Below, in pieces: positions 9,201 to 50,880 of a DNA stretch of 55,504 nucleotides; positions within the stretch are counted from its first letter, which is position 1; every line of letters starts with the position of its first letter. Both the position numbers and the translations under genes were made by a program. The notes under the pieces were generated by a model that searched no databases, was not told the DNA's origin, and worked only from the letters and a program-made list of their open reading frames with translations. Source of the stretch: an uncultured Rhodospirillaceae bacterium (GTDB lineage: Bacteria > Pseudomonadota > Alphaproteobacteria > GCA-2731375); NCBI GenBank assembly GCA_964507245.1, contig CAZDQC010000006.1, forward strand, positions 1 to 55,504, read 5' to 3'.

Positions 9201-9277
9201 GGCCTAATGATTTCAACTCCCTGCTAAGTCCATATCGCCGCTTGTCGGCGCTGCTTGGGACAGGCAGAGTCTAACCG

Positions 9278-15064: not shown

Positions 15065-15276
15065 GAACAAACCTGTAGTGTTATGGTGGACGAGCCGCTG
15101 CGATGTCACCGCAACACGCTCCTGGCAGGAGTCAAATGGTAGCCAATTCTTTGCCGCAAGGGAATGCGAATATGGTTAAACAAGTGACCTGTTGAAGAAA
15201 ATGCAAGGCGATGTCCCGCCGGCCAGGACGAAGGGCGTATTCGAGCCTCCCTATGAGAACCCGATGGCCCTTTCCG

Positions 15277-18366: not shown

Positions 18367-18795
18367 TGGAAAATCCTCTCACGGTGCTTTTGGTATTTTT
18401 GTTGGCTGATGAACGCCACAAACACAGACAAACAAATCTAACACCTCTTTTGGGATAAGTCTCAATTTGGCGAGTGATGATGTCGCCTCTTTGATGAAGA
18501 TTTGGCCTATTTGTTCCTAGTGGCGGCAACCTAACGCCGCTATTTGAAGGCTTTGCCTCGATTATCCTCCAGGCCAAAAAATCATTGCAATCGTACATAG
18601 GCTGTTTTCTAGCGCTAGCTCACAGGCGCCCTGATAGCCTCGCGAATTGAAATTGCCCGCCATCACAGGCAGTCTCGTGAAAACTAGAAAAATGACAGCA
18701 TGGCGGTTTGGCTTTGTAACCCTATTATGGCGGAGGTTCGACTCGGGCCGTATCCCTTGCTAGAAATCAGGGCTGCAAGTTCAGGAGGAGCAGAA

Positions 18796-19878
18796 ATGAC
18801 CATGTTGCCAAAATCTGTGGTTATCACGGACGATACGATGCGCGAAGGTCTACAGATTGAAAGCGCCGATATATCGGTCGATGATAAATTGCGCCTTTTG
18901 GATGCACTGGGCGAAACAGGTGCCAAGGTAATTTCGATAGGATCCTTCGCTCATCCCAAATGGACGCCCTCAATGGCCTGCATTGACGAAATTGCAGAAA
19001 GATTTGTCCCCAAGCCCGGCATCAAATATACGGCAGCCATCTTCAACAAACGCGGATTTGAGAGAGCGGATGCCTACTATCCAAAGATTAATGTGCGCGG
19101 CAGGAAGTTCGGCACTAATGTGGAGTTGTGTGACACCTTCGCCCGACGCAACTACAACCGAACCCAGGCTGAACAGATCGCTGGGCTGGACGTCGCTGTG
19201 GCCGCAGCCAAAGAGGCTAATGCGGAATTCGGCGCGGTGGGTCTAGGCAACCCCTTCGGCTCCAACTTCGAAGGACCATTTACCCTGGCACAACGTATGG
19301 AACTTCTAGACCTAATGATGGACAAATGGCATGCCTCCGGAATTAAGGTAAACAAATGCTCTTTTCTGGACGCCATGGGTTGGAACATGCCGCACGAGGT
19401 ACGGGAAACCCTGATTGCTATCAAAGACAAATATCCCGAGATCAAGGATTTCCACATGCATCTCCACGACAGTCGGGGCGTCACCCTAACCAGCTATTAC
19501 GAGGCGTTGCAACTGGGCGTCCGAGAGTTTGATACGTCCATCGGTGGCATGGGCGGGTGCCCCTACTGCGGTAACGGCAGAGCAGCCGGCCACGTCCCCA
19601 CTGAGGACTTTGTCAACCTGTGCCACGAACTGGGAATAGAGACGGGTTATGACCTAGACAAATTGATCGAGGCCGCTGCCATTGCCGAAGAAATTGTTGG
19701 CCATTCACTGTGGGGCCATGTATCCAAGGCCGGCGCTAGACCCCGGAGAAGCCGGCTATACCCCGCCAATATGCCTTTTGTAGAAACCCTTGATGAGGCG
19801 GCCCATTTCCGCAAGGGGCCGGAGGTCTATGCTGGCCAGCTTTCGCCCTGGAAAGATGGTGACGCCCTTAGCCGCTAA
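18796..19878 (+). CDS. HMG-CoA-lyase-like (DRE-TIM metallolyase) protein
   Basis: ITDDTMREGLQIE and FHMHLHDSRG metal-binding motifs. AGGAGGAG RBS before ATG 18796. Confidence 0.8.
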   Translation: MTMLPKSVVITDDTMREGLQIESADISVDDKLRLLDALGETGAKVISIGSFAHPKWTPSMACIDEIAERFVPKPGIKYTAAIFNKRGFERADAYYPKINVRGRKFGTNVELCDTFARRNYNRTQAEQIAGLDVAVAAAKEANAEFGAVGLGNPFGSNFEGPFTLAQRMELLDLMMDKWHASGIKVNKCSFLDAMGWNMPHEVRETLIAIKDKYPEIKDFHMHLHDSRGVTLTSYYEALQLGVREFDTSIGGMGGCPYCGNGRAAGHVPTEDFVNLCHELGIETGYDLDKLIEAAAIAEEIVGHSLWGHVSKAGARPRRSRLYPANMPFVETLDEAAHFRKGPEVYAGQLSPWKDGDALSR

Positions 19879-19921
19879 TAGCAGCCTACTTTAGGTCTGG
19901 CCTAGTTCTGGAGCAATTAAT

Positions 19922-21553
19922 ATGCCGGCACTCGACTCGACTCTTGATGTACGATCGGATGAATTCCAAGAAAACCGCCGTAAAATTCTTGAAATGCTGG
20001 ATACCCTGGACGAGCTGCATGCAGAAGTAGCTCAGGGCGGCGGTGCGGAAGCCATGGCGCGTCTAGCTTCCCGGGGCAAAATGCCGATCCGGGAACGTAT
20101 CGCCCTGGTGTTGGATCGCGACAGCCCATTCATGGAAATCAGCCCTCTGGCTGCCTGGCGGTCGAATTTCAATGTGGGTTCGGGCTTCGTGGTGGGTCTG
20201 GGCGTCATCGAGAACACAGAATGTTTGATCCTCGGCCATGATCCCTCTGTCCGAGCAGGTGCCTTCAATCAGTTTAATGCCAAAAAATTAATGCGTGGAT
20301 TGGAAATAGCCCGTGAGAACCGCCTGCCCTACGTGCAATTTGTCGAATCTGCAGGCGCAGACCTACGTGGCGATGGCGACGGCGACCCGGAAGCCGCTAT
20401 CCGTCGCGAAGGTGGGCATTTTGCGGAATCTGGACGCTTGTTCTATGAAATTACTGAATTGTCAAAGTTACGAATTCCGACGATTTCCGTGGTCTTCGGA
20501 GCCTCCACTGCCGGTGGAGCCTATCAGCCAGGAATGAGTGACTACAACATTTTCGTAAAAAACCAGTCCAAGGTCTTTCTAGGCGGCCCGCCTCTGGTAA
20601 AAATGGCCACTGGCGAGGACGCAGACGAGGAAAGCCTAGGCGGGGCGGATATGCATACCCGTATCTCCGGACTGGGTGACTATCTGGCCGAGGATGAGGT
20701 CGACGGCATCCGAATTTGCCGCGAAGTAATCTCCCATTTGAACTGGCGGAAGAAAGGTCCAGGACCAACCCTTCCCGATGATCCGCCTTTATTTGACAAA
20801 GAAGATTTACTAGGCATCGTCAATGTAGACCTGCGGGTGCCCTTTGATATACGCGACATTATCGCCCGTATTGTAGACGGCTCTCGCTTCGAGGAATTTA
20901 AGCCACTTTACGGTCCTACCCTGGTAACCGGCTGGGCCTCTGTGCACGGCTACCCCGTCGGTATCGTGGCCAACAACGGCCCCTTGCTGTCGGAGTCATC
21001 TGAAAAGGCGGCGCAATTCATTCAGTTATGCAATCAGATCGACGTGCCGCTACTATTCCTTCACAACATCACCGGCTATATCGTTGGGACGGATTTTGAG
21101 CAGGGCGGTATCACCAAGAACGGCTCGAAAATGATCAATGCGGTGTCTAATTCATCGGTACCGCATATTTCCATTATCATCGGCGCCTCCTACGGGGCGG
21201 GCAATTACGGGATGAGCGGTCGTGCCTATGGAACCCGATTTACCTTCATCTGGCCCACCGCCAAAATCGCAGTCATGGGCCCAAAACAGATGGCCGGGGT
21301 CATGTCCATTGTACAGCGTGCAGCTTCTGAACGGCGGGGAATTGAATTCGACGAGGAAGCTGATGCTAAACGCGCAACCACAGTGGAGCATTGGGCGGAG
21401 GAACGTTCCAAAGGACTTTACGCAACATCTCGCGTTTCCGATGATGGCATGATCGATCCCCGGGATACCAGAACTTCAATCGCCATCGCACTATCAGTCT
21501 GTCACAACCAGGAAGTCAAAGGCACCAAGGAGTTCGGCACATGGCGGATGTAG
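19922..21553 (+). CDS. acyl-CoA carboxylase carboxyltransferase (beta) subunit, methylcrotonyl-/geranyl-CoA carboxylase-like
   Basis: 543 aa with the double crotonase-like carboxyltransferase architecture and N-terminal FQENRRKILEMLDTL...GGG. It pairs with the following biotin carboxylase. Confidence 0.9.
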   Translation: MPALDSTLDVRSDEFQENRRKILEMLDTLDELHAEVAQGGGAEAMARLASRGKMPIRERIALVLDRDSPFMEISPLAAWRSNFNVGSGFVVGLGVIENTECLILGHDPSVRAGAFNQFNAKKLMRGLEIARENRLPYVQFVESAGADLRGDGDGDPEAAIRREGGHFAESGRLFYEITELSKLRIPTISVVFGASTAGGAYQPGMSDYNIFVKNQSKVFLGGPPLVKMATGEDADEESLGGADMHTRISGLGDYLAEDEVDGIRICREVISHLNWRKKGPGPTLPDDPPLFDKEDLLGIVNVDLRVPFDIRDIIARIVDGSRFEEFKPLYGPTLVTGWASVHGYPVGIVANNGPLLSESSEKAAQFIQLCNQIDVPLLFLHNITGYIVGTDFEQGGITKNGSKMINAVSNSSVPHISIIIGASYGAGNYGMSGRAYGTRFTFIWPTAKIAVMGPKQMAGVMSIVQRAASERRGIEFDEEADAKRATTVEHWAEERSKGLYATSRVSDDGMIDPRDTRTSIAIALSVCHNQEVKGTKEFGTWRM

Positions 21554-23523
21554 CCACGAAACAAATTACCCGCCTGCTGATCGCCAATCGCGGCGAGATT
21601 GCCCATCGAATAATTCGTACAGCCCACGAAATGGGCATCAACACTGTCGCCATCTATGCAGATAGCGATGCTAGCGCAACGTTCGTACGAGAAGCTGACC
21701 AGGCCATTGCCCTGAAAGGTAAAACCTCAGCTGAAACCTACCTTAATGTGGCCAAAGTGCTAGATGCCTGCAAGCGCACAGACGCCGACGCGGTGCACCC
21801 TGGCTACGGTTTTCTCGCTGAGAATTCGGAATTTGCCAAGGCGGTCATAACTGCCGGCATGGTTTGGGTTGGACCGTCAGTCAAAGCCATTAGCGCCATG
21901 GCCGATAAAATCTCTGCCAAGCGCCTAATGAAAGAAGCAGACGTCCCGACACTCCCAGCGCATGAGTTGGGTACAGATGACGACATTTTCACTGCCGCCA
22001 AGGAAATCGGGTATCCGGTTTTAGTCAAGGCTTCCGCCGGCGGCGGGGGGCGCGGCATGCGGGTTGTCAAGACTAAAGGAGATCTTGCGGAAGCTGTTGA
22101 TAGTGCTCGGCGAGAGGCAAGTGCGGCCTTCGGCGACGATACACTATTTTTGGAACGCTGGTTGGCTACATCGCGTCATGTGGAGATCCAAATTTTGGGT
22201 GATCTGCATGGCAATTTAGTACATCTTTTTGAACGGGAATGTTCGATCCAGCGCCGCCATCAGAAGATAATAGAAGAAGCACCCTCCCCCGCCGTCAAAC
22301 CGGAGATCCGCGCCCGCATGGGTGAGGCGGCGCTATCGGTCGCGCGCAAGCTGGATTATGCTTCCGCTGGAACTGTCGAGTTTTTGCTCGACGGCGAGGA
22401 ATTCTGGTTTCTTGAAGTCAATACGCGGCTGCAGGTTGAACATCCCGTCACGGAGGAGATTACCGGCCTGGATCTGGTACGTGAACAACTACGCATTGCC
22501 GCAGGGGAAGAGCTTGGCTACAACCAGGATGATCTGACCATTGACGGCCATGCCATAGAGGCTCGAATTTACGCCGAAGATCCTGTCAACGATTTCCTAC
22601 CCTCGCCAGGCACGGTAGTCATCTGGGAGCCTGATCTGACAACAGGCGCCCGCTTTGAAGCTGGGATCGAGACTGGCAGTATAATTAGCCCAGAGTTCGA
22701 CCCAATGATTGCCAAGGTGATTGTTAAAGCCCGCGACCGCCAAGAAGCCGCTCGCCGCCTGGCGCGGGTTTTGGAAAAAACCCGGCTGCAGGGCATTACC
22801 AACAATCGGGACTTCCTCATATCCACTTTACAATCGCCGGAATTCATAGCGGGTGACACCACTACCGACTTCATCGAACGGGTCAACCCAAGCAGATCAC
22901 AGCAGATGGCTCCGATGGATATACATCACAGCGCAATCGCTGCCGTCATTGTTGCGCAGGCGCAACGGCGTGCGCAAGCACGTGTTCTAGAGACCCTCCC
23001 TAGCGGCTGGCGCAATTCAAAAATGCCTCCTGAACGGGTTACCTTCCGCCAAGGTGAAGACGAATTCATTGTCGCCTATCGGACACAACGGAACGGAAAT
23101 TTTAAGGTTTCCATTGGCAGCGTTGACTACGGGGTAGCTGTATTTTCAGTTGATGACCACAACGTAGATCTAGAAATTGACGGTCGAAGGGTTAGCGCGT
23201 CCATCACTCAGGCCGGCGATAATTGGCTTGTCCACGCTGCCCGTGGCGGGATTGAACTCCAAGAACTACCGAGATTCCCGGACAGCAAACAGGTGGATTT
23301 CACCGGCGGACTTGTTGCACCCATGCCCGGTAATGTAACTACCACTCACGTGGAGGAAGGTGCGGCCGTGGAGGAAGGCCAACTATTGCTAATTCTCGAG
23401 GCCATGAAGATGGAACACCGTATTACCGCCCCGGTTTCAGGCATAGTGAAACAAATGCGCGTCTCCGTCGGTGACCAGGTTGACAACGGTGAACTACTGG
23501 TGGTGCTGGAAGAGGTGGAGTAG
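21541..23523 (+). CDS. acyl-CoA carboxylase alpha subunit (biotin carboxylase + BCCP)
   Basis: LLIANRGEIAHRIIRT at the N-terminus, an ATP-grasp domain, and the C-terminal biotinylation motif LILEAMKMEH. 13-nt overlap with the beta subunit. Confidence 0.9.
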   Translation: MADVATKQITRLLIANRGEIAHRIIRTAHEMGINTVAIYADSDASATFVREADQAIALKGKTSAETYLNVAKVLDACKRTDADAVHPGYGFLAENSEFAKAVITAGMVWVGPSVKAISAMADKISAKRLMKEADVPTLPAHELGTDDDIFTAAKEIGYPVLVKASAGGGGRGMRVVKTKGDLAEAVDSARREASAAFGDDTLFLERWLATSRHVEIQILGDLHGNLVHLFERECSIQRRHQKIIEEAPSPAVKPEIRARMGEAALSVARKLDYASAGTVEFLLDGEEFWFLEVNTRLQVEHPVTEEITGLDLVREQLRIAAGEELGYNQDDLTIDGHAIEARIYAEDPVNDFLPSPGTVVIWEPDLTTGARFEAGIETGSIISPEFDPMIAKVIVKARDRQEAARRLARVLEKTRLQGITNNRDFLISTLQSPEFIAGDTTTDFIERVNPSRSQQMAPMDIHHSAIAAVIVAQAQRRAQARVLETLPSGWRNSKMPPERVTFRQGEDEFIVAYRTQRNGNFKVSIGSVDYGVAVFSVDDHNVDLEIDGRRVSASITQAGDNWLVHAARGGIELQELPRFPDSKQVDFTGGLVAPMPGNVTTTHVEEGAAVEEGQLLLILEAMKMEHRITAPVSGIVKQMRVSVGDQVDNGELLVVLEEVE

Positions 23524-23705
23524 GCCTCGCCACGTCACCTTCCCAAAAAGACTTTGCTAAGTAATTATGTCTTGCGGCCGGAAATGCTAACTCGCCAGGT
23601 ATCCATATATGGACAAACTGCCTGAGCTTAAGGCTGCTGGCATTATCGGCGATCAACCCATTGCGCCCGAGCGACCGGGCACATCCGTGTCATGAGGAGT
23701 ATACT

Positions 23706-25154
23706 ATGGCGGAGACGGAACTTTTTCAGCTGACAGCACGGGAAGCTGTGGCACGCCTGAAAGCAGGAGAGATTTCACCCTTAGATTTGATTGACGCAGC
23801 CGAGGCACGAATTTTGGCTATCGATCATGACATCAATGCGTTGCCAACCTTGTGTCTGGATCGGGCACGAGACCACGCCAGAGAACTCATAGCCGGCAAA
23901 AGATGCGATGCCCGGGACGAACCAGGCTGGCTGGCGGGCCTGCCGGTGGCTATTAAGGACCTGGCAGATGTCGCCGGGGTGCGCACAACGTACGGCTCTC
24001 CCATATTCGCTGATCACGTGCCGGAATCCTCTCATCCTCTAGTTGAACGTATCGAGCGCAAGGGCGGGGTCGTCATTGCCAAATCCAACACCCCAGAATT
24101 TGGCGCCGGTGGCTCCACCTTCAATAAAATCTTTGGGAAAACCAGAAACCCCTGGAACACTTCTCTGACACCAGCCGGCTCGACGGGCGGCGGTGCGGCA
24201 GCCCTGGCGGCAGGCGAAATTTGGCTTGCCCACGGTAGTGATCACGGGGGCAGCCTGCGCCGGCCGGCCACCTATACTTCCGTGGTTGGTCTGCGCCCAT
24301 CGCCAGGCCGGGTGACCAGAGGTACGGTCGACACACTATTCTCACCGCTGTCTGTACAAGGCCCCATGGCGCGTAACGTGCCTGACCTAGCACTATTTTT
24401 GGACACTATGGCCGGTTTTTGCCCTACCGATCCTTTAACCTTTGACGCCCCTCCCATACCCTTTTTCGAAGCAGTACGTACAGAGCGATCACCGCGCCGG
24501 GTGGCCTATGCGGAAACCATCGGTCAATCTCCCGTGGACAAAGAAACCAGGGAACTTTGTCGCGCCGCTATGAAAGCTTTCGAGGCGTTAGGCGCGGCGG
24601 TCGAGGAGATCAGAATTGATATCCCTGACGTGGAGAATACCTTCCTGGCGCTGCGGTCACAGCAATTCGTCATTGACCGGGAACTGCAATTGCAAAGCCA
24701 TCGAGACAAAATCAAGCCGGATATCATCTGGAATACAGAAATTGGCCTGAAACAATCAATTTCGGATCTGGCTGCGGCTGAACGGGGCCGCACAGCCCTC
24801 TACCGGCAATTCGCCGACCTGTTTAACCAATACGATCTGATCGTCACTCCAGGCGCTAATACGCCAGCCTTCGACGTGGATCTACGTCATCCAGAGGTTA
24901 TCGACGGCGTCAAATTGGAACATTACATGGCCGCATCCACTCTGACCGCCGCCGTCACATTGTCTGCCTCACCCGCCCTGGCCCTTCCCTGTGGATTTGA
25001 CCAATACGGGCGGCCCATCGGCCTGCAGGTCGTGGGCCGGCCGCGGGGAGAAGCGGAATTGCTAGCTGCCTGCGCCCTTTACGAGCGCGAAAGCAGTTTA
25101 GACGAGCAAATTCCCATCGACCCTCGCGCCGGGACAGTGCCGCCGGTGGATTAG
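23706..25154 (+). CDS. amidase-signature family amidase
   Basis: AIKDL Lys and the GSTGGGAAALAAG...GSDHGGSLRRPA signature. GAGGAG RBS before ATG 23706. Confidence 0.85.
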   Translation: MAETELFQLTAREAVARLKAGEISPLDLIDAAEARILAIDHDINALPTLCLDRARDHARELIAGKRCDARDEPGWLAGLPVAIKDLADVAGVRTTYGSPIFADHVPESSHPLVERIERKGGVVIAKSNTPEFGAGGSTFNKIFGKTRNPWNTSLTPAGSTGGGAAALAAGEIWLAHGSDHGGSLRRPATYTSVVGLRPSPGRVTRGTVDTLFSPLSVQGPMARNVPDLALFLDTMAGFCPTDPLTFDAPPIPFFEAVRTERSPRRVAYAETIGQSPVDKETRELCRAAMKAFEALGAAVEEIRIDIPDVENTFLALRSQQFVIDRELQLQSHRDKIKPDIIWNTEIGLKQSISDLAAAERGRTALYRQFADLFNQYDLIVTPGANTPAFDVDLRHPEVIDGVKLEHYMAASTLTAAVTLSASPALALPCGFDQYGRPIGLQVVGRPRGEAELLAACALYERESSLDEQIPIDPRAGTVPPVD

Positions 25155-25262: not shown

Positions 25263-26786
25263 TCAGTAGGTAGAATCCGGAACGGCCGCCTTCTTATTAG
25301 TAATAAACTCGCTCAAGGATTCGTCAATGGCCGGGTCTAACTCTGGCGCCATATAATCAGTTAGCAATTGTTTCCAAAGGCCATTGGCCCGCGCGGTCGC
25401 ATCCAGACTACCGTCAATCTCCCATTGTTCCACCGAATTGTTATCGGCAATTCCCGAAATATAAAATGCCTGCTCAAAATTGCGTTGAGTATGATCGCAA
25501 CCCAGGAAGTGACCGCCCGGACCGACCTCGTGAATAGCGTCCATGGCCTGGCCGTTTTCAGATAAATCAACACCCTTGGCATAGACCGCCATCATACCCA
25601 ACTGGTCACAGTCCATGACGAATTTTTCATAGGAAGAACAAAGCCCCCCTTCCAGCCAACCTGCCCCATGGAGAACGAAATTAACGCCACCGTTCATGGT
25701 GGCTTGCAAAGTATTGGCGCTTTCATAGGCGGCCTGAGCATCGGTTATCTTAGATGCACATAGGGCGCCTCCGGACCGAAATGGCAAGTTTAGGCGTCGG
25801 GCCAGTTGCGCCGCACCCAGCAGCAACAGATTAGATTCTGGCGTTCCGAAGGTTGGTGCTCCGGACTGCATGGAGATAGAAGAAACGAAGGTCCCGAAGA
25901 TCACGGGCACGCCCGGCCGGATGATCTGGGTCAAAGCCACACCGGCCATGGCCTCAGCCAGCAATTGGCTCAGCGTGCCAGCAACCGTCACCGGGCTCAT
26001 GGCCCCGGACAATATAAAGGGTGATACCACACAAGCCTGATGATGGCGGGCGTAGACCTTCAAGGCGCCCAGCATGGTGCCGTCGAACAGCAAAGGCGAG
26101 TTGGCGTTAATCAGGTTCACCATGACCACGTTTTGCTCGACGAATTCATCACCGAATACCAGCTTAGCCATATCAACACTGTCTTGGGCCCGATCTGGTG
26201 CCGTCACCGATCCCATGAACGGCTTGTCGGACAATTTGATATGACTATAGACCATATCCAGGTGGCGTTTATTAACTGGCAGATCCACTGGCTCGCACAC
26301 CGTGCCGCCGGAATGGTGTATATGGGGTGATAGATAGGCCAGCTTCACAAAATTGCGGAAATCCTCAATCGTGCCATAGCGGCGGCCGCCATCCATATCC
26401 CGCACAAACGGTGGGCCATAAACCGGAGCGAACACCATATTGTCGCCGCCAATCTCTACGCTGCGGGCAGGATTACGTGCATGCTGAGTAAATTGCGCAG
26501 GCGCCGTGGCAATTAATTGCCGTAACAACCCTTTTGGAAATCGTACTCGCTGGCCCTGAACGTCAGCGCCAGCGCCGCGCCAAAGATTCAGAACTTCATC
26601 GTCATCTCTAAATTCAATGCCGATGTCCTGTAACAGTTGATCCGCATTCGCCTCAATTTGAGCCAGCCCTTCTTCGTTCAAGACTTCCTGACAGGGTACA
26701 CGGCGGATGAGATAGGGTGCTGAAACGGTCATTTTGGCGGCTCGGCTTTCCCGCCTTGCGGCACGTCCTCCGGATCGTCTGGCCAT
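25263..26786 (-). CDS. MttB-superfamily (trimethylamine methyltransferase family) substrate:corrinoid methyltransferase, non-pyrrolysine type
   Basis: 507-aa uninterrupted ORF with no in-frame TAG. It has the Arg-rich N-terminus (MARRSGGRAARRESRAAK) I recall from bacterial MttB homologues and a TIM-barrel-length body. It is clustered with a corrinoid protein, an activase and a pterin methyltransferase. Confidence 0.8.
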   Translation of the reverse strand: MARRSGGRAARRESRAAKMTVSAPYLIRRVPCQEVLNEEGLAQIEANADQLLQDIGIEFRDDDEVLNLWRGAGADVQGQRVRFPKGLLRQLIATAPAQFTQHARNPARSVEIGGDNMVFAPVYGPPFVRDMDGGRRYGTIEDFRNFVKLAYLSPHIHHSGGTVCEPVDLPVNKRHLDMVYSHIKLSDKPFMGSVTAPDRAQDSVDMAKLVFGDEFVEQNVVMVNLINANSPLLFDGTMLGALKVYARHHQACVVSPFILSGAMSPVTVAGTLSQLLAEAMAGVALTQIIRPGVPVIFGTFVSSISMQSGAPTFGTPESNLLLLGAAQLARRLNLPFRSGGALCASKITDAQAAYESANTLQATMNGGVNFVLHGAGWLEGGLCSSYEKFVMDCDQLGMMAVYAKGVDLSENGQAMDAIHEVGPGGHFLGCDHTQRNFEQAFYISGIADNNSVEQWEIDGSLDATARANGLWKQLLTDYMAPELDPAIDESLSEFITNKKAAVPDSTY

Positions 26787-27021
26787 AACTGAACCTACCC
26801 CTATTCAAATACCGGTTCAAACGCCACTGTTCTAACAAAAACTACCCGTCAAAGATCATAGAACTATTTCAGGGACGCCTGTAAGTATCCAAATCACGAC
26901 AGGAATTGGCGCAACTGTATCGGCGTAAATGGGATTGCTCTTGTCACATCGTGTTTAGCACGCCAAATTCATAAGAATTTGCTTGCCATCGTCGAATTGG
27001 GAAATTGACGAAAGGGTTACA

Positions 27022-27624
27022 ATGAACGGCAATGGACAAACCCTGCTGATTTGTTGCGGCGCCACAGCGCGGGAGATAACGGTACCCATAGACGGCAATG
27101 GCCTGGATTACATGAAAGTGGAGGGCTTGCCTGCCAGTCTGCATAATAGACCGAAATTCATCCCTGAACGGGTGCACAAAAAGATTAGGGCGAACCGGGA
27201 CGGGTTCGAACGCATCCCGGTTTTGTATAGTGACTGCGGCACTGGGGGACAATTGCAGAAGGTGCTGGATGAGGAAGGTGTTCACGGATTGGGCGGAACC
27301 CACTGTTACGAAATGTATGCTGGCGTAACTGCCTTTGCCGCAATTACTGAGGACGAAGTCTGTTGTTTTTTTCTCACCGATTATATGACCCAACACTTTG
27401 AACGGTTGGTCATCCAAGGTCTTAGTCTGGATAGACACCCGGAGTTGCGGGACAGTTACTTCGCCAACTACCAGAAAGTTGTCAGTCTCGCGCAGAGAGA
27501 TGAACCGGCGTTGCGTGATTTGGCCGCTTCCGCCGCCGGCCGATTGGGATTAGATCTAGAAATTCGACAAACCGGATACGGCAACTATCGCGACTTCATT
27601 TCGCACCATGCCAGAACATCCTGA
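27022..27624 (+). CDS. DUF1638 domain protein
   Basis: About 200 aa starting MNGNGQTLLICCGA...DYMKVEGLPASLHNRP. As far as I recall, DUF1638 is a family usually found beside corrinoid methyltransferase genes. 17-nt overlap with the activase gene. I prefer ATG 27022 to TTG 26983. Confidence 0.65.
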   Translation: MNGNGQTLLICCGATAREITVPIDGNGLDYMKVEGLPASLHNRPKFIPERVHKKIRANRDGFERIPVLYSDCGTGGQLQKVLDEEGVHGLGGTHCYEMYAGVTAFAAITEDEVCCFFLTDYMTQHFERLVIQGLSLDRHPELRDSYFANYQKVVSLAQRDEPALRDLAASAAGRLGLDLEIRQTGYGNYRDFISHHARTS

Positions 27625-29614
27625 TCCGAAACAGCACATCTGTGAAACTACGGTGGTCTTCATGCCATCGGGTCTACGCGGGCACTTTTCCAAAGGCACA
27701 ACCTTACTGGCGGCTGCGCGATCGCTAGGCGTTGATATAGATTCGGTTTGCGGCGGGCGGGGCATCTGCGGACGCTGTCAGGTGACCGTGGCGGAAGGCG
27801 AATTTGCCAAGCTGGGTATACAATCGCGGAACGAGCATCTGGCCGCCTTCGCGGATAATGAAATTCGCTTTAACGGACGAAAAGGACTCCTACCTGGCGG
27901 CCGGTTAAGTTGTTCGGCAAGACTGACCGGCGACATCGTGATCGATGTACCCGCGGAAAGCCAGATTTACCGGCAAATCGTTCGAAAACGCACAAACGCC
28001 CGGACCGTGCGGATCGACCCCATCATCCGGCCCCTCTATGTGGATTTTTATGAAAATTCGTCCGATGCACCCGTCACCCGACTGCGCGCCGCCCTGCGAA
28101 AACAATGGCAAATCGACGCCACGGTGCAGGAGACCGTGACAACTCAACTGAAGGGTGACGAAAAAAATCTTACGGTTGCTCTGCGGGAGGAAAAGCATGT
28201 TGTCGCAGCCTGGTCGGGTTTTCGCGAAAACCTAGCGGGCCTGTCGGTGGACATCGGCTCAACCACTGTTGCTGCGCAACTCTCGAACTTGGGAAGCGGC
28301 GAGATCATGTCGGAAGCAGGCATCATGAACCCGCAAATACGATACGGCGAGGATGTAATGAGCCGTGTCTCTTACGTCATGCTGAACCCCGGCGGCCAAG
28401 ATTTACTTACAAATGCCATTCGAACCGCAATCCAAGATTTGGCTACAGACTGCGCCCAGACCGCCAGGATCACTCGCCAGGATATCGTGGAGTTGACCAT
28501 CGTAGGAAATCCCATAATGCACCATCTTTTCCTCGGATTGGATGTGGTTCCCTTAGGCCAAGCACCCTTTCCCTTAGCTGAGGACGGTCCGATTACATGC
28601 CTGGCGAGCGCACTTAACCTCGATCTTAATCCAGGTGCCCATGTCCACATCCTACCCTGCATCGCCGGACACGTGGGCGCCGATACCGCGGCCGTAATCC
28701 TGTCTGAGGCGCCTCAGGAGAGCGAGGACACCACCTTACTCGTGGATATAGGAACCAACGCGGAAATTGTCCTAGGTAACCGGATGCGGCTGTTAGCTTG
28801 CTCAAGCCCCACGGGTCCGGCATTTGAAGGGGCTCAGATTTCATGTGGGCAACGGGCAGCAGCCGGAGCCATCGAACGTGTACGGGTCGATCCCGTGACT
28901 TTAGAACCCCGTTTCAAGGTCATAGGCTCAGACTTGTGGTCAGACGATCTGGAGTTTCTTTCCTCAGTCGGGGATATAGGTGTGACCGGCATCTGCGGCT
29001 CCGGCATTATCGAGGCGCTAGCGGAACTATTCTTATGCAGCGCCGTCAGATCCGATGGCCTATTCGATCCCGATAAGGCCGTAATGAATTCGCGCCTTGA
29101 AAAGGACGGACAGACCTATCGGTATCTTCTGCATGCGGGACCACCTGCCATTCACATAACCCAGCTAGACATCCGTAACATACAATTGGCAAAGGGCGCG
29201 GTATATGCCGGCGCCCGGTTGTTGATGGACAAATTAGCCGTGGATCACGTGGATCGGATCGTGCTGACTGGTGCCTTTGGCAGCTACATTGATCCCAAAT
29301 TCGCCATGGTTCTGGGGCTGATCCCTGATTGTCCACTGTCAAAGGTCTCTGCCGCCGGAAATGCCGCAGGTACAGGTGCTCGCATTGCCCTCTTGGATAA
29401 GGCAGCGCGAACGGAAATTGAAAGGGTCGTCCAGGATGTGGAGAAGATAGAGACAGCACTGGACCCCAATTTCCAGGATCAGTTTGTAGGTGCCATGGCG
29501 TTTCCTCACGAAATTCACACCTTTCCCCATTTATCGAAGGAAGTCGCCATACCCCGTCAGGAAACTGCGGTTTCCTTGAAACGGCAACGACGCGGCCGGC
29601 GGCGGCAAAGATAA
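27608..29614 (+). CDS. corrinoid reductive activase (RACo/RamA-like: N-terminal 2Fe-2S ferredoxin + ASKHA ATPase domain)
   Basis: Plant-type ferredoxin motif SVCGGRGICGRCQV...LSCSA, then an actin-like ATPase body (VDIGSTTVAAQL, LVDIGTNAEIVLG, TGAFGSYIDP). C-terminal KRQRRGRRRQR tail. Confidence 0.8.
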   Translation: MPEHPDPKQHICETTVVFMPSGLRGHFSKGTTLLAAARSLGVDIDSVCGGRGICGRCQVTVAEGEFAKLGIQSRNEHLAAFADNEIRFNGRKGLLPGGRLSCSARLTGDIVIDVPAESQIYRQIVRKRTNARTVRIDPIIRPLYVDFYENSSDAPVTRLRAALRKQWQIDATVQETVTTQLKGDEKNLTVALREEKHVVAAWSGFRENLAGLSVDIGSTTVAAQLSNLGSGEIMSEAGIMNPQIRYGEDVMSRVSYVMLNPGGQDLLTNAIRTAIQDLATDCAQTARITRQDIVELTIVGNPIMHHLFLGLDVVPLGQAPFPLAEDGPITCLASALNLDLNPGAHVHILPCIAGHVGADTAAVILSEAPQESEDTTLLVDIGTNAEIVLGNRMRLLACSSPTGPAFEGAQISCGQRAAAGAIERVRVDPVTLEPRFKVIGSDLWSDDLEFLSSVGDIGVTGICGSGIIEALAELFLCSAVRSDGLFDPDKAVMNSRLEKDGQTYRYLLHAGPPAIHITQLDIRNIQLAKGAVYAGARLLMDKLAVDHVDRIVLTGAFGSYIDPKFAMVLGLIPDCPLSKVSAAGNAAGTGARIALLDKAARTEIERVVQDVEKIETALDPNFQDQFVGAMAFPHEIHTFPHLSKEVAIPRQETAVSLKRQRRGRRRQR

Positions 29615-29700
29615 GGCGTGTTAACCACTTGTCGCTGACACCTGGACCCCACTATCATCGCAGCGCATAACTCTCGCCAGCGTGGATGGGATAGCTGCTC

Positions 29701-30669
29701 ATGGTCACCTCGGATAAGCCTGTCGCGCCGCATCATGTTGCTTTCGTGTTGGTTCCGGACTATTCCCTGATCGCCTTTGCATCCGCGATCGAACCATTGC
29801 GACTGGCCAATCAAATCGGCGAACAAACCGCTTATCAATGGAGCTGCCATACCCTGAATGGTGAGCCGGTAAAGGCTAGCAATGGCCTAACAACCCAGCC
29901 TGATGGCGGCCTGGACGCCATCGGCGGTGCCGATCTCGTGGTGGTCTGCGCCGGTTTGAACGTTGAACGGCAGCGACATTCTACAGCCCTTCTCTCGCGC
30001 CTACGTTATCTGGCCAGCCACGGCGCCACCATTGGCGCTATTTGTACGGGCACCTACCTTTTGGCCAAAGCAGGCTTGCTGGATAACCACCGCTGTACCA
30101 TTCACTGGGAAAATCTACGGGGTTTCCAGGAGGAATTTCCTCAAATCGAGGTGACGTCGGAGTTATTCGAATTCGACAATCGCCGGGTGACGTCCGCCGG
30201 CGGTACCGCGTCTTTAGATATGATGCTGCATTACGTAGCGACACAATATGGTGCGGATCTAGCCACCAGCATTGCGGATATGATGATGCATCACCATATT
30301 CGGCCCGGCGACGACCCCCAACGCCCGGATCTGCGAGTCCGGCTGGGCGTGTCGCACCCAAAGTTGGTAGCTACTATCGCCTTGATGGAATCTGGCCTCG
30401 AGGCGCCGCTAAGCTGCCGCCGTCTATCGCAAGCGGTAGGCCTCTCATCACGCCAGTTAGAACGGCTATTCGCGCAACATTTGGGCACGACGCCTATGCG
30501 CTACTATTTGCGCCTTAGATTGTTTCAGGCCCGTCGACTGCTAAAACAGACCTCTATGTCCGTATTACGTATCGGGCTAAGCTGTGGTTTTGTCTCGGCC
30601 TCGCATTTTTCGAAATGCTATCGGGAGACTTTCAACAAAACCCCCAGTCAAGAACGAGCGAGGTCATAA
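29701..30669 (+). CDS. GlxA-type (DJ-1/PfpI GATase1-like + AraC HTH) transcriptional regulator
   Basis: N-terminal VAFVLVPDYSLIAFASAIEPLRLAN and ICTGTYLLAKAGLLD (DJ-1 fold). C-terminal AraC HTH GLSCGFVSASHFSKCYRETFNKTPSQER. Confidence 0.85.
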   Translation: MVTSDKPVAPHHVAFVLVPDYSLIAFASAIEPLRLANQIGEQTAYQWSCHTLNGEPVKASNGLTTQPDGGLDAIGGADLVVVCAGLNVERQRHSTALLSRLRYLASHGATIGAICTGTYLLAKAGLLDNHRCTIHWENLRGFQEEFPQIEVTSELFEFDNRRVTSAGGTASLDMMLHYVATQYGADLATSIADMMMHHHIRPGDDPQRPDLRVRLGVSHPKLVATIALMESGLEAPLSCRRLSQAVGLSSRQLERLFAQHLGTTPMRYYLRLRLFQARRLLKQTSMSVLRIGLSCGFVSASHFSKCYRETFNKTPSQERARS

Positions 30670-30696
30670 GGCAAACCCCGTTTGACTTAGCCGTAT

Positions 30697-31611
30697 TCAG
30701 CTACGCCTACCCCGGCGGCCGCTACGCCGGCGCGGGGCGGCCCCACTACCATCAGCACTATCGCCGCCAACCGCACGAAATTTTGCAATCCAACTAGCGC
30801 AATTTTGGTCATGCCCCATGACGACATTGGCCCCCATCACGGCCGACATTTCTTCGTTATGCAGCGGGTTAGTGATAGCCGATGTCAGGCCAGCGCCAAT
30901 CGCCATGGCAAGAAACGACCAGTTCAAGCCATGCCGGTTCGGCAGGCCAAAGGAGAAGTTAGAGGCGCCGCAAGTAGTATTGACCCGCAACTCCTCTCTT
31001 AGACGGTGGATAATGGATAAGGCCTGCCGGCCCGCCTGACCGATTGCGCCGACGGGCATAACTAGGGGATCCACCACCACGTCACCGCGGGGGATGCCGT
31101 GATCTTCGGCCCGCTCGACGATCTTTTTGGCGATGGAAAAACGTATGTCCGGATCTTCCGATATACCGGTTTCGTCGTTTGAAATAGCGACCACGGCCGC
31201 GCCGTACTTTTTTACCAGTGGTAGAACTGATTCAAGTCGTTCCTCTTCACCGGTCACGGAATTGACCAGGGCCTTGCCTTGATAGACTTCCAATCCGGCC
31301 TGCAAAGCGGCAACGATGGAAGAATCGATAGACAGAGGCACGTCAGTCAAACTTTGCACCAGTTGGATTATCTCGGCCAGGATACGTGGTTCATCTGCCA
31401 GTGGTATACCCGCGTTAACATCCAACATATGCGCACCGGCGGCGACTTGGGCCAAGGCGTCCGATGCGGCCCGGGAATAGTCTCCCTCTTTCATCTCGTC
31501 CGCCAGCAGCTTGCGACCGCTGGGATTGATACGCTCGCCAATGATAGTAAAGGGACGTTCGGTCCCAATCACCACTTCCTTGCTAGCAGAACTGACGACG
31601 GTTTCGGTCAT
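30697..31611 (-). CDS. pterin-binding methyltransferase (methyl-corrinoid:tetrahydrofolate methyltransferase, MtgA/AcsE/MetH-pterin-domain-like)
   Basis: IIGERINPSGRK, LDVNAG and CGASNFSFGLPNR, typical of the pterin-binding (DHPS-like) domain. It starts 7 nt after the corrinoid protein gene. Confidence 0.8.
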   Translation of the reverse strand: MTETVVSSASKEVVIGTERPFTIIGERINPSGRKLLADEMKEGDYSRAASDALAQVAAGAHMLDVNAGIPLADEPRILAEIIQLVQSLTDVPLSIDSSIVAALQAGLEVYQGKALVNSVTGEEERLESVLPLVKKYGAAVVAISNDETGISEDPDIRFSIAKKIVERAEDHGIPRGDVVVDPLVMPVGAIGQAGRQALSIIHRLREELRVNTTCGASNFSFGLPNRHGLNWSFLAMAIGAGLTSAITNPLHNEEMSAVMGANVVMGHDQNCASWIAKFRAVGGDSADGSGAAPRRRSGRRGRRS

Positions 31612-31618
31612 AGCCCGG

Positions 31619-32341
31619 CTATCCGCCGCGCGCAGCGAGAGAACCCTGACGACGGCTCATTTGTTCAACGGCGATTTCCACGGCCGATGCGGCATCCCGG
31701 CAATAGGCATCCGCGCCGATCGCCTGAGAAAATTCCTCATTCAATGGCGCGCCACCGACCAACACGATGTAGTCGCTGCGCAGGCCTTTTTCTGCCAAGG
31801 TGTCAATCACCACCTTCATGTATGGCATTGTCGTGGTCAAGAGCGCCGACATACCGAGGATATCCGCCTGATTTTCCTCCAACGCGGTCAGGAAATCTTC
31901 CACTGACTGATTAATGCCAAGATCTACCACCTCGAACCCGGCGCCTTCCATCATCATAGCCACCAGGTTCTTACCGATATCGTGTATATCACCCTTGACT
32001 GTGCCAATGACGATCCTACCCATACGGGGTGCGTTGGAGGCGATGAGTAAGGGTTGTAATATGGCCATGCCCGCCTTCATGGCGTTGGCGGACATCAATA
32101 CCTCTGGTACGAACAAGATGCCGTCGCGAAAATCAATGCCAACGATGCGCATGCCTTCGACCAGGGCCTCGTTTAGGGTCCTTTGTGCGTCCCACCCCCG
32201 ATCCAGCAGGATTGTAGTGCCTTCTGCAATTTCATCCGCCAGTCCATCGTAAAGGTCATCATGCATCTGAGCTACAAGGTCTTCATCGCTCAACGTCGCC
32301 AAGTCTATGTCGTCTTCGCTTGCCGCTATCTCATCCGCCAT
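31619..32341 (-). CDS. cobalamin-binding corrinoid protein (B12-binding cap + Rossmann domain)
   Basis: His-on motif GTVKGDIHDIGKNLV (DxHxxG), GMSALLTTTM (SxL) and LVGGAPL (GG). I prefer ATG 32341 (GGAG RBS); the longer ORF to 32500 has W/C/R-rich junk. Confidence 0.85.
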   Translation of the reverse strand: MADEIAASEDDIDLATLSDEDLVAQMHDDLYDGLADEIAEGTTILLDRGWDAQRTLNEALVEGMRIVGIDFRDGILFVPEVLMSANAMKAGMAILQPLLIASNAPRMGRIVIGTVKGDIHDIGKNLVAMMMEGAGFEVVDLGINQSVEDFLTALEENQADILGMSALLTTTMPYMKVVIDTLAEKGLRSDYIVLVGGAPLNEEFSQAIGADAYCRDAASAVEIAVEQMSRRQGSLAARGG

Positions 32342-32740: not shown

Positions 32741-33907
32741 ATGGTTTCAGTCGCCGTTCACCCTAAGCAGTTTCCCTGGTTCGACTATTCTACTTACTCT
32801 TTTTCTCTCGGCATCGATGCGGGCGAAGGCATCTATCTGTCCGGTCATACGGCGTCGGCGTACGACGAAGAGGCCGGTCGGATCACTATCAAGGGCGGCA
32901 TGGCTGAACAGGCGCGCACTGCCTATGAAAAAATTGCTGCCATCCTGGAGGGTGCAGGCAAGTCCTTTGGGGATGTTGTGCGAGTGGTCGAGTATGTCAA
33001 GCCTGAAGGAATTGAGCGCTATGGCGAGGCTGCGGCTGTACGCGAGGAAGTATTTGGTAGCCACCGCCCCGCTGTTAATACCGTGCCAGTCAAGGCACTG
33101 TTACGCCCCGCCGCATTTATTGAGATTGAAATCACCGCCGGTCCAGTGGCCGCGGAAACCGGTTTCGGCACCGGTCTTCCTGTTGCGCGGGAGTCGTCCG
33201 GAGTTGTTTTTCTACCCACGGTGCAGGCAGTAAACGAGAATGGCGAGATTATCGGACCCGGTGACGTAGTTGCCCAGACGGCAGCGATATTCAAGAAAGC
33301 CAAGAAGATGCTGGAAACACTGGGTCTCGGCTTTGATTCCGTAGTAAAGACCCTCGACTACATCACTCCAGCAGCATTGGCCGACTATCGCGGCACTGGT
33401 AGGGTACGCAAGGAATTCCTGGGGCCTGTCTATCCTGGCGCTGCAGGGATCCTAATGCCGCGCCTGCTCCACTCGGAAGCGTTGATCCAGTATGATTTTA
33501 TCGCCTCCCGCGATAAAACAGTTGCCGTGAACCCCGGCTGGGACCGTTATGAAAAACTGACCTATAGCCCGGGCGTCCGAGCTGGCAAACTGCTGTTTCT
33601 TTCCGGTCAGGGTTCGCTTGACCCAAGCACTGAACGGGTCGTACATGACGGTGATGTCGTAGCACAAGCGGAATATACCTACAATAATATCTTCAAGGTC
33701 ATCGAGGCCGCTGGCGGAACACCAGGAAATTTGGTGAAAACGATCGAATATGTCACACCAGCGGCACTCGCACGCTATCGACAGGTCGGCGCCCTACGTG
33801 CCAAGCAGTTAAGCCAGCCCTACCCCGCGGCTACAGGCTTGATCTGTGAGGCCCTGTTGCGCCCAGAAATGCAGATCGAGGTTGATCCCTTCGCTGTGCT
33901 GGATTGA
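32741..33907 (+). CDS. triple-tandem RidA/YjgF/L-PSP-family protein
   Basis: 388 aa, resolvable by eye into three modules of about 125 aa. They end ...PAVNTVPVKALLRPAAFIEIEITA, ...PGAAGILMPRLLHSEALIQYDFIA and ...PAATGLICEALLRPEMQIEVDPFAV, each preceded by a GDVVAQ/GMAEQA...helix-type segment. Confidence 0.75.
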   Translation: MVSVAVHPKQFPWFDYSTYSFSLGIDAGEGIYLSGHTASAYDEEAGRITIKGGMAEQARTAYEKIAAILEGAGKSFGDVVRVVEYVKPEGIERYGEAAAVREEVFGSHRPAVNTVPVKALLRPAAFIEIEITAGPVAAETGFGTGLPVARESSGVVFLPTVQAVNENGEIIGPGDVVAQTAAIFKKAKKMLETLGLGFDSVVKTLDYITPAALADYRGTGRVRKEFLGPVYPGAAGILMPRLLHSEALIQYDFIASRDKTVAVNPGWDRYEKLTYSPGVRAGKLLFLSGQGSLDPSTERVVHDGDVVAQAEYTYNNIFKVIEAAGGTPGNLVKTIEYVTPAALARYRQVGALRAKQLSQPYPAATGLICEALLRPEMQIEVDPFAVLD

Positions 33908-33909
33908 AC

Positions 33910-34410
33910 ATGTCCGAGCCTCTCCTCAATGATGAATTAAGAGCCTGGATTGGTCGAGAAGTGCGTTATGAGGCCAAGGAAGAATTGGGCCGAGCCTCGA
34001 TCCGCTATTTCGCGCTTGCAATCGATGACGATAATCAACTCTATCAGGACGATGCCTACGCCCGTCAGGCCGGTTATGACAGCTTGATTGCGCCGCCGAC
34101 ATTTGTAGTCGAGACTTGCCAGTATGCCCATCGGCGGCCAGACGAGCACGGTTACATGGGACACACCTGGCATCTACCGGTGCATGGCTGCCGGATGATC
34201 CGGGCCGGCAACGACTACGAGTTCGTCCGGCCCGTGCTACCGAACGACAAAGTATCCGTAACCTGGACCTTGGAAGATATCGTGGAGCGGAACTCCTCCC
34301 GTGGCGGCTCCCAGCTCTTCGTCACCTCAGTAGCGCGTTATTACGACATCGGCGATGAGTTGCTTGCGGTAAATCGTGAGACCCTTGTCTATCAGCCTCT
34401 GAAGGAATGA
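33910..34410 (+). CDS. MaoC-N / FAS1-like hot-dog dehydratase subunit
   Basis: About 166 aa with SIRYFALAIDDDNQLYQDDAYARQAGYDSLIAPPTF, typical of the N-terminal half of split (R)-hydratases. It abuts the RidA stop and overlaps the next gene by ATGA. Confidence 0.7.
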   Translation: MSEPLLNDELRAWIGREVRYEAKEELGRASIRYFALAIDDDNQLYQDDAYARQAGYDSLIAPPTFVVETCQYAHRRPDEHGYMGHTWHLPVHGCRMIRAGNDYEFVRPVLPNDKVSVTWTLEDIVERNSSRGGSQLFVTSVARYYDIGDELLAVNRETLVYQPLKE

Positions 34411-34838
34411 GAATGAACGACGCGACAGGGCAAGCGGCCGAAATCAAGCCCGGGACAACCCTTCCGGTGGAAGAGAAATTCTTCACCGCAGCCGACCTGG
34501 TGATGTACGGCGCCGCGACCTGGGACTGGCACCGGCTGCACTACGACACGACGTTCACCAATGCAATGAACCTACCTGCCCCCGTAATCGACGGTCAAAT
34601 TTACGGCGCCCTATTCGCCAAACAAGCGGTCGGCTGGCTTGGCCCTCGCGCGTTCGTGCAACGCATGGGATTTCGCATGCGTTCTATGGCCTTTGCAGAC
34701 GATACACTGCGTACAGAAGGCGAAGTGTCGGAAGTACGGTCAGAGGAGAGCGCCGATGTCATTGTGTTGCAACAGCGCCTAACTTGCGGCGAACGGTTAA
34801 TTGCAGAGGCCACCACAGAGATCCGGCTGTCTCGGTAG
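34407..34838 (+). CDS. MaoC-like hot-dog (R)-specific enoyl-CoA hydratase subunit
   Basis: 143 aa with VMYGAATWDWHRLHYDTTFTNAMNLPAPVIDGQ (hydratase-2 D/H motif region). Confidence 0.75.
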   Translation: MRMNDATGQAAEIKPGTTLPVEEKFFTAADLVMYGAATWDWHRLHYDTTFTNAMNLPAPVIDGQIYGALFAKQAVGWLGPRAFVQRMGFRMRSMAFADDTLRTEGEVSEVRSEESADVIVLQQRLTCGERLIAEATTEIRLSR

Positions 34839-40184: not shown

Positions 40185-40449
40185 AGCGGCTTCCAAGCAG
40201 AGATATCATAGCGATTGATACTAGGCTTGTTATGACCCAGCCACAATCACCACTCTCAGAATTGCAAAAGGAATTATTTGTATATTGGTGATTAAAATCG
40301 CCATCTTAATGTCATATCTAAAATTCTATCTGCACAGCAAGGGTCCAGATTTTTCGGGCCAGCAAGGATCCATAGCGTTACTCCGGAACGTACGGGAACT
40401 TCCCGGTCCTGAATTGCACCAGCTCAATGTTCGCCGTCCAAATTCAGAA

Positions 40450-41400: not shown

Positions 41401-41505
41401 AGTGGTTCAGTCGTCATCAATGAAACTCCGCAACACATTGTCAGGCTGGACAAATCACCTAGTTATCTAGATCCATTACAATAGTCGTAATTCGTGAATC
41501 CTAAT

Positions 41506-50800: not shown

Positions 50801-50880
50801 TAATTAAGTCTCGTCACAAACGAGCACAGTCGGGCCTGCTGAACCAATTCGGCTAGCAGGCCCGAAACTTATGCTAATTT

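Follow-up and report, generated by a model that had tools for sequence, protein, structure and literature searches.

Does the group of six genes at positions 25263 to 32341 of the stretch considered here, 55,504 nt of contig CAZDQC010000006.1 from an uncultured alphaproteobacterium (hereafter the window), encode an unfamiliar aerobic route for the breakdown of methylated amines, and on which compound would it act? A sequence-only reading had described these genes as a complete corrinoid-dependent methyl-transfer system built around a homolog of MttB that lacks pyrrolysine (Pyl), and had proposed that they form an undercharacterised aerobic pathway. Domain calls on the window proteins with Pfam and NCBIfam models bear out the six genes in both domains and coordinates. 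The functional reading was also essentially right: every component domain was identified, and the cassette is predicted from these domains to be a complete relay, comprising a non-Pyl MttB-superfamily methyltransferase, a corrinoid protein, a methyl-corrinoid:tetrahydrofolate (THF) methyltransferase, a reductive activase and a regulator. Our view of what the relay is, and of what it acts on, departs from that reading. We interpret the cassette as a probable aerobic, cobalamin-dependent methyltransferase system of the MtgBCD type that includes a repair module and a regulator of its own and whose substrate is most likely glycine betaine, and to this interpretation we assign a probability of about 0.7.

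Two published systems frame the question. In the aerobic Phaeobacter inhibens, Price et al. 2018 (PMC5764234) described a split methionine synthase, which on genetic evidence depends on ferredoxin-DUF4445 (RACo/RamA-like) and DUF1638 proteins; its corrinoid protein stands alone, and a pterin-binding protein and a separate homocysteine methyltransferase complete it. Mausz et al. 2025 (PMC12478193) knocked out mtgC and mtgD in the aerobic Ruegeria pomeroyi, and both proved essential for methionine synthesis as well as for glycine betaine demethylation. In the same organism MtgB1 and MtgB2 (PF06253; SPO2108 and SPO2134), RamA and DUF1638 were induced on betaine, choline and carnitine, and MtgBCDE, RamA and DUF1638 were found co-located in Sinorhizobium meliloti and in many marine Alpha-, Gamma- and Deltaproteobacteria (PMC12478193). 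The same study reported up to seven MttB paralogs per genome, probably for other methylated compounds, and noted that about 70% of marine genomes with MtgBCD are without MetH. The R. pomeroyi genetics supersede the belief, held in the sequence-only reading, that strict anaerobes are the sole source of characterised non-Pyl MttB systems, and the same can be said of the proposed undercharacterised route, the aerobic system type having been published in 2025 (PMC12478193) and its parts tied to methionine synthase in 2018 (PMC5764234). That the corrinoid and pterin modules also serve methionine synthesis, as both papers document, had been missed altogether. The window system belongs to the recently described aerobic MtgBCD kind and is not an uncharacterised route.

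The evidence begins with the MttB homolog itself, whose match to the MTTB model (PF06253) covers model positions 1-499 of 500. Its open reading frame (ORF) of 507 codons is uninterrupted, Leu342 aligns with the pyrrolysine of 7XCL (the MtgB of Desulfitobacterium hafniense, DhMtgB, and the structure 4YYC likewise have Leu there), and its 263 bits against the Pyl-MttB equivalog TIGR02369 lie below the cut-off of 525, so that the absence of UAG and pyrrolysine noticed at the outset holds. Among solved structures the best match is 4YYC (789 bits), with DhMtgB at 439 bits and Pyl-MttB at 108. 4YYC is an S. meliloti protein (1190 bits to the MttB gene product of the S. meliloti locus, L083) and is 71% identical to the window protein, as against 45% for DhMtgB. 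A neighbor-joining tree places the window MttB in a tight clade, at 66-87% identity, with 4YYC and the proteins of Paracoccus methylovorus and Azoarcus KH32C; the clade also takes in orthologs from Stappiaceae, Sneathiella, Rhizobiales and others, and outside it fall proteobacterial MttB paralogs at 41-58% identity as well as DhMtgB. A residue-signature comparison with DhMtgB gave 9 shared positions, no more than with individual paralogs. The sequence-only reading had suggested such a placement and had held that a known clade with identical gene context would speak against its claim; this is largely what we find, the protein grouping tightly with that of the S. meliloti cluster and having the same partner genes.

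The remaining parts of the methyl relay are equally recognizable. The corrinoid protein combines a four-helix cap (B12-binding_2) with a Rossmann B12-binding domain that carries the expected DxHxxG motif as DIHDIG. Its mechanical ORF extends to 32500, and the start at 32341 chosen earlier is right, as judged by an upstream GGAG and by an independent gene call of 240 aa on a near-identical contig. This MtgC is 73% identical to the corrinoid protein of the S. meliloti cluster, finds its best PDB match in 1Y80 (188 bits), and scores 178-211 bits against two anaerobe-type MtgC models, under their cut-offs of 310 and 370. The pterin methyltransferase lies above the cut-off of PRK07535 (353 bits against 259), is 59-80% identical to cluster-linked orthologs, and has as its best PDB matches the MetH pterin module 1Q7M and the methyltransferase MeTr 2YCK, both at ~141 bits. 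The regulator aligns full length to the NCBIfam GbdR model NF052371 with 372 bits, below the equivalog cut-off of 480, and by this score is best described as GbdR-like, not as a GbdR equivalog. The divergent intergenic region upstream of DUF1638 and the region upstream of mtgC had no motif longer than a 9-mer in common, so that an operator could not be recognized, and no Rfam element, cobalamin riboswitch included, was detected in the window.

The repair module comprises the activase and DUF1638. The former has Fer2, RACo_linker, Raco_middle and RACo_C_ter (ASKHA) domains in Pfam, matches the solved RACo structure 3ZYY along its whole length (288 bits), and has in its N-terminal domain the four cysteines of a 2Fe-2S pattern, as Cys-X5-Cys-X2-Cys and a distal Cys. 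Its score against the RamA model TIGR04270 is 120 bits, with a cut-off of 500, which places it in the RACo type. Together with the B12-binding and pterin-binding domains, the DUF1638 and RACo C-terminal domains complete the set that the sequence-only reading had wished to see confirmed by model searches. For DUF1638 the mechanical ORF runs from 26983 to 27624; we reset its start to the ATG at 27022 because homologs are ~200 aa long and because a ribosome-binding site precedes this codon. The RACo start overlaps the DUF1638 stop by 17 nt, which suggests translational coupling, and the two families co-occur across Alphaproteobacteria. On a near-identical metagenomic contig (L089, positions 9164-9765) the gene call breaks DUF1638 into pieces of 86 and 121 aa, which probably reflects an assembly frameshift and not a real split.

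What DUF1638 does is a question in its own right. An alignment of 58 homologs identifies as invariant Cys12, His41, Asp71, Cys72, His94, Cys95 and several Gly and Pro residues (200-aa numbering). In an AlphaFold (AF2) model with a pLDDT of 90.5, strand and helix elements alternate; we read the predicted fold as two-lobed alpha/beta, with the invariant residues placed after successive strands, and a putative metal or cofactor site is a reasonable inference from this model. A Foldseek search of the model against the PDB returned no convincing relative (TM-score at most 0.31), and the longer homologs, inspected for fused domains, offered no informative fusion. By analogy with the published systems, DUF1638 would be a protein that assists corrinoid reactivation. 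One could go further and propose a previously unrecognised metal-binding or redox subunit of corrinoid reactivation, which could sustain Co(I) chemistry in oxygen-respiring cells, a tentative idea that we put forward with considerable doubt.

Is the grouping of these six genes meaningful? A scan of species-representative genomes yielded 80 loci with an MttB ortholog at 66-97% identity, in which partner genes were counted within 10 kb. MtgC was present in 43 of the 80, MtgD and RACo in 40 each, DUF1638 in 37, and all four partners in 34; many of the loci without all partners lie on short contigs. None of the genes that flank the cassette in the window accompanied the MttB ortholog in any locus (0/80). 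In an 87%-identical relative (L081) the same six genes keep their order and orientations between unrelated genes, and since the set is kept there with different flanks, and all four partners recur in 34 loci, the grouping is not due to chance. A regulator of the same family stands beside the MttB ortholog in Paracoccus methylovorus (362 bits), in L081, on the P0069 contig and in 5 of the 80 loci. The neighborhood survey proposed earlier therefore comes out in favor of the six genes. It does not favor two other elements of the sequence-only reading. The O2-dependent enzymes that were taken as meaningful context are, like the CoA-metabolism genes, neighbors rather than context, because 0/80 loci conserve them, and the betaine-type transport genes said to adjoin the cassette are at some distance from it: the nearest gene of the OpuAC-type betaine ABC transporter (48868) is ~16.5 kb away and the OpuAC binding protein (50881) ~18.5 kb. 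The conserved unit is the cassette itself.

Some orthologous loci include a further gene. A ~230-aa Cys-rich protein is encoded directly downstream of the MttB ortholog in S. meliloti (L083, 15569-16273) and in 28 other Rhizobiales-type loci (e.g. L053, 12433-13125); the window lacks it. Neither Pfam nor NCBIfam models match this protein, which is annotated as 'ferredoxin' in S. meliloti, has a CxxCxxxPCxxxCP-like C-terminus, and might donate electrons to the system or act as another accessory factor.

As for the host, marine metagenomes (ENA, JGI) contain MttB copies near-identical to that of the window, an 'uncultured Alphaproteobacteria' metagenome-assembled genome (MAG) binned from ENA run ERR598985 has one at 97%, and relatives at 84-90% carry Rhodospirillaceae or Alphaproteobacteria MAG annotation; wider relatives come from Rhizobiales, Stappiaceae, Paracoccus and marine MAGs. 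The window also encodes a Rieske oxygenase, PhyH, an AurF-like di-iron protein and luciferase-like monooxygenases, all O2-dependent. From these proteins and from the alphaproteobacterial MttB relatives, the host is plausibly an aerobic alphaproteobacterium, as had been supposed. The window is chromosomal, judging by the housekeeping genes priA, transaldolase and recombinase.

The earlier view that the sequence does not reveal the substrate was too pessimistic, since orthology and conserved linkage to genes of betaine metabolism point to glycine betaine. A dimethylglycine dehydrogenase (DMGDH) ortholog lies within ~1.5 kb of the MttB ortholog in 15 of the 80 loci, usually at less than 500 bp and divergently oriented. 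One copy (L012) aligns full length to rat and human dimethylglycine dehydrogenase with 688 bits, the other copies are 57-94% identical to it, and the DAO-FAO_M-GCV_T architecture was seen as Pfam domains on the copy of locus L080. An 85%-identical relative has, 41 nt downstream of MttB and on the same strand, the gene for an 811-aa DAO-FAO_M-GCV_T protein known by its architecture alone; on this contig a DUF1638-RACo-AraC unit is divergent from MttB. The MttB ortholog of Azoarcus KH32C sits between folD and the gene of a choline-binding protein, and betA, betB and ETF-QO lie within ~6 kb of it; in Paracoccus methylovorus the full cluster is ~4.5 kb from carnitine 3-dehydrogenase and beside its GbdR-like regulator; the S. 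meliloti ortholog has bmt and a betaine transporter in its vicinity; and the window's own regulator is GbdR-like. It is because of this orthology, and of the conserved linkage to DMGDH, betA/betB, bmt and GbdR-like regulators, that we consider glycine betaine the likely substrate.

Several points weigh against this assignment. MttB paralogs too can adjoin DAO-GCV_T genes, so that such an association alone is not betaine-specific; the paralog-adjacent DAO-GCV_T protein is only 39% identical to the DMGDH ortholog, and the DMGDH association, though indirect evidence, is specific to the subfamily. The MtgB candidates of R. pomeroyi were named from proteomic induction only (PMC12478193), and we found in the literature no knockout or assay of an aerobic-type MtgB, a biochemical characterisation published elsewhere being possible. 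DhMtgB is the one glycine betaine enzyme with biochemical proof, and the 45% identity to it is no closer than that to some paralogs of undefined specificity. Finally, DMGDH, a MetF-type reductase and an MtgE/Bmt ortholog are all missing from the 55-kb window. The sole PF02574 member in the window was considered as MtgE and ruled out, as it is 26% identical to S. meliloti Bmt and reaches 87 bits against the Bmt model PRK07534, where the cut-off is 338 and Bmt itself scores 589.

These points lend some weight to the view that the same machinery acts on another quaternary or tertiary amine, such as proline betaine, carnitine, gamma-butyrobetaine, choline or phosphocholine, homarine or trigonelline. 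The MttB superfamily has diversified by substrate, as the many paralogs of aerobic alphaproteobacteria illustrate (up to seven; PMC12478193), resemblance to the proven DhMtgB is limited, DMGDH is lacking from the window, and a GbcA-like Rieske oxygenase, a GmaS-type type III glutamine synthetase and the OpuAC transporter are encoded elsewhere in it. We nevertheless regard another amine as an unlikely substrate, given that the window clade is the one physically linked to the core MtgC, MtgD, RACo and DUF1638 genes and, in many lineages, to true DMGDH, betA/betB, bmt and GbdR-like regulators, while the paralogs with hydroxyproline-type, GcvT-like or paired FAD-oxidoreductase contexts lie outside it. 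A trimethylamine:corrinoid methyltransferase system, as implied by the automated annotation 'trimethylamine methyltransferase family', would accord with Pfam family membership and database names, and is hardly credible in view of the uninterrupted frame, the leucine at the pyrrolysine position, the low TIGR02369 score and a match to solved Pyl-MttB far below those to DhMtgB and 4YYC.

A different kind of alternative concerns purpose rather than substrate: the corrinoid protein, pterin methyltransferase, RACo and DUF1638 might mainly form the core of a split cobalamin-dependent methionine synthase, with MttB as a secondary methyl-donor module. Orthologous parts are needed for methionine prototrophy in P. 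inhibens (PMC5764234) and R. pomeroyi (PMC12478193), and the frequent lack of MetH among marine MtgBCD genomes noted above would fit such a core. It seems quite improbable as the principal role here, where the cassette has a catabolic GbdR-type regulator and the MttB gene itself, is joined to DMGDH in close relatives, and is accompanied by no MtgE/Bmt ortholog within the 55 kb of the window. The methionine and catabolic roles are in any case not mutually exclusive.

MttB paralogs in other genomes offer a view of how such a core may be shared. Those of a P. inhibens plasmid, Leisingera and Mesorhizobium (L088, L087 and L086), at 43-58% identity and all on plasmids, occur in contexts without corrinoid genes of their own. 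The P. inhibens plasmid copy stands with genes reminiscent of hydroxyproline catabolism (for a DapA-family protein, an aldehyde dehydrogenase and an FAD oxidoreductase) and with ProX; the Leisingera copy is beside a GcvT-like aminomethyltransferase gene; and the Mesorhizobium copy is beside genes for 815- and 821-aa 'FAD-dependent oxidoreductases' (DAO-GCV_T-sized, by size alone) and a betaine-type ABC transporter. This arrangement fits one core corrinoid module (MtgC/MtgD) served by several substrate-specific MttB modules, and the plasmid paralogs are candidates for new substrate specificities with a shared MtgC/MtgD core. With respect to plasmids, several PLSDB records of 3.5-4.6 Mb (CP090106.1, NZ_CP104131.1 and others; e.g. 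'pSymB' of S. meliloti strain Ak57, 3.72 Mb) look like chromosomes labelled as plasmids, and PLSDB counts of 'plasmid-borne' mttB are inflated as a result.

Under the glycine betaine reading we infer the following course from the observed domain content, orthology and conserved synteny, with the identity of the substrate, the catalytic steps in this organism and the effector of the regulator all to be taken conditionally. MtgB would bind a quaternary amine, likeliest glycine betaine, and pass one N-methyl group to Co(I)-MtgC, yielding methyl-Co(III)-MtgC and dimethylglycine. MtgD would then shift the methyl group from methyl-Co(III) to THF, producing 5-methyl-THF and regenerating Co(I). In an oxic cell the adventitious oxidation of Co(I) to inactive Co(II) would be expected to be frequent, and the RACo-type protein would return Co(II) to Co(I), an uphill step, by means of its 2Fe-2S cluster and ASKHA ATP hydrolysis, with DUF1638 assisting. 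The GbdR-like AraC regulator would induce the genes on betaine or dimethylglycine. With the help of genes outside the window, methyl-THF would be oxidised via a MetF-type reductase (MetF2) for energy and C1 units, and MtgD could also work in the opposite direction, methionine then being made by MtgC together with a homocysteine methyltransferase module (MtgE).

The cassette shares its parts with the MtgBCD(E) systems of R. pomeroyi and S. meliloti (a non-Pyl PF06253 protein, PF02607/PF02310, PF00809, a RACo/RamA-like activase and DUF1638), likewise in aerobic hosts. It differs in layout: the window genes form one compact cassette that includes a GbdR-like regulator, with no methylene-THF reductase (MTHFR, MetF2), MtgE/Bmt or cob genes nearby, whereas the mtg genes of R. 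pomeroyi are scattered and those of S. meliloti occur with MTHFR, bmt and, according to PMC12478193, cob genes. On one side of the S. meliloti locus are an ASKHA protein, a methyl-THF:cobalamin methyltransferase, MTHFR and an MTHFR C-terminal domain protein, with DUF1638 and a cobalamin-binding protein further along; on the divergent side are the MttB-family protein and the 'ferredoxin', and further on bmt and a betaine/proline ABC transporter. As annotated, this locus fits the MtgBCDE cluster described in PMC12478193. With the split methionine synthase of P. inhibens the window shares stand-alone corrinoid, pterin, ferredoxin-DUF4445 (RACo-type) and DUF1638 proteins; that system is defined by methionine auxotrophy and has a PF02574 homocysteine module, whereas the window has no ortholog of this module and instead has an MttB gene and a catabolic regulator.

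Comparison with systems from anaerobes places the cassette at greater distance. Three-component logic and Leu in place of pyrrolysine are common to the window and to MtgB/MtgC/MtgA of D. hafniense (PDB 2QNE, 9YCE), and of the biochemically proven enzymes whose structures are solved DhMtgB comes closest, at an identity that does not establish equal specificity; its host is a strict anaerobe, and its corrinoid protein belongs to another clade than the window MtgC. Methanogen MttB/MttC/RamA (PDB 7XCL, 7XCN) belong to the same superfamily and follow the same corrinoid shuttle principle, but that system is pyrrolysine-dependent, has coenzyme M as methyl acceptor and a RamA with 4Fe-4S clusters. RACo of Carboxydothermus hydrogenoformans (PDB 3ZYY, 4C1N) has the same 2Fe-2S, linker, middle and ASKHA architecture; it acts on the CoFeSP of the Wood-Ljungdahl pathway, again in an anaerobe, whereas the window gene is coupled to DUF1638 and a MetH-like corrinoid protein.

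Table 1. Features of the cassette and of its surroundings in the window (positions are those of the window)
Feature	Position	Strand	Details
mtgB-like, non-pyrrolysine MttB-superfamily substrate:corrinoid methyltransferase	25263..26786	-	507 aa; PF06253, 779 bits
Divergent intergenic (promoter) region, mtgB versus DUF1638-RACo-regulator operon	26787..27021	.	read from sequence
DUF1638 protein	27022..27624	+	200 aa; PF07796, 78 bits
RACo-type reductive activator of corrinoid proteins	27608..29614	+	668 aa; four Pfam domains
GbdR-like DJ-1/PfpI-AraC transcriptional regulator	29701..30669	+	322 aa; DJ-1_PfpI + HTH_18
mtgD-like, pterin-binding methyl-corrinoid:tetrahydrofolate methyltransferase	30697..31611	-	304 aa; PF00809, PRK07535
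mtgC-like corrinoid (cobalamin-binding) protein	31619..32341	-	240 aa; PF02607 + PF02310
Protein of two tandem family III CoA-transferase domains	12785..15109		774 aa
Co-directional block abutting mtgB	18700..25154
Protein with three tandem RidA (Ribonuc_L-PSP) domains	32741..33907		388 aa
MaoC-type hydratase pair	33904..34838
Rieske oxygenase	38976..40196		GbcA-like N-terminal similarity, 149 bits (cut-off 670)
PF02574 protein	40450..41400
Type III glutamine synthetase	42419..43726		TIGR03105, 634 bits
OpuAC-type betaine ABC transporter	48868..51888

The surroundings of the cassette (Table 1) were also searched for clues to the substrate. Such clues from the HMG-CoA-lyase-like, acyl-CoA carboxylase, amidase, triple-RidA and MaoC-pair genes, and likewise from the luciferase-like monooxygenase, CoA ligase, ACAD and Rieske oxygenase genes, were dropped, as 0/80 loci conserve them and the flanks of L081 differ. 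Some of these neighbors deserve mention in their own right. In the block abutting mtgB, genes for an HMG-CoA-lyase-like protein and an acyl-CoA carboxyltransferase are joined by one for a biotin carboxylase/BCCP that carries a methylcrotonyl-CoA-carboxylase BT domain and by an amidase gene; by its domains the block looks like a Liu/Atu-type acyl-CoA carboxylase pathway, and other genomes do not conserve it alongside the cassette. The protein with tandem CoA-transferase domains is encoded next to an amidohydrolase, a luciferase-like monooxygenase and a thiolase-like protein. The triple-RidA protein, which may be a fused pseudo-trimer, is followed by the MaoC-type pair, an arrangement that recurs on the near-identical contig L089. 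About 7 kb from the cassette, the PF02574 gene lies directly upstream of the Rieske oxygenase gene, and the glutamine synthetase gene is divergent from both. The family to which this synthetase belongs includes gamma-glutamylmethylamide synthetases (GmaS), and the region from 38976 to 43726 may represent a second methylated-amine pathway.

Glycine betaine is among the most abundant marine osmolytes and nitrogen and carbon currencies, and the B12-dependent MtgBCD system was recognised as a major aerobic pathway for its demethylation only in 2025. The window reveals no new kind of biology, and the questions it raises are the substrate of the 4YYC-type MttB and the mechanism of DUF1638. What it contributes is a compact form of the known system, six genes with their own regulator, in an uncultured marine alphaproteobacterium met repeatedly in ocean metagenomes, and the comparative data, through linkage to DMGDH, betA/betB, bmt and GbdR-like regulators in many lineages, strengthen the putative assignment of the 4YYC-type MttB clade to glycine betaine.

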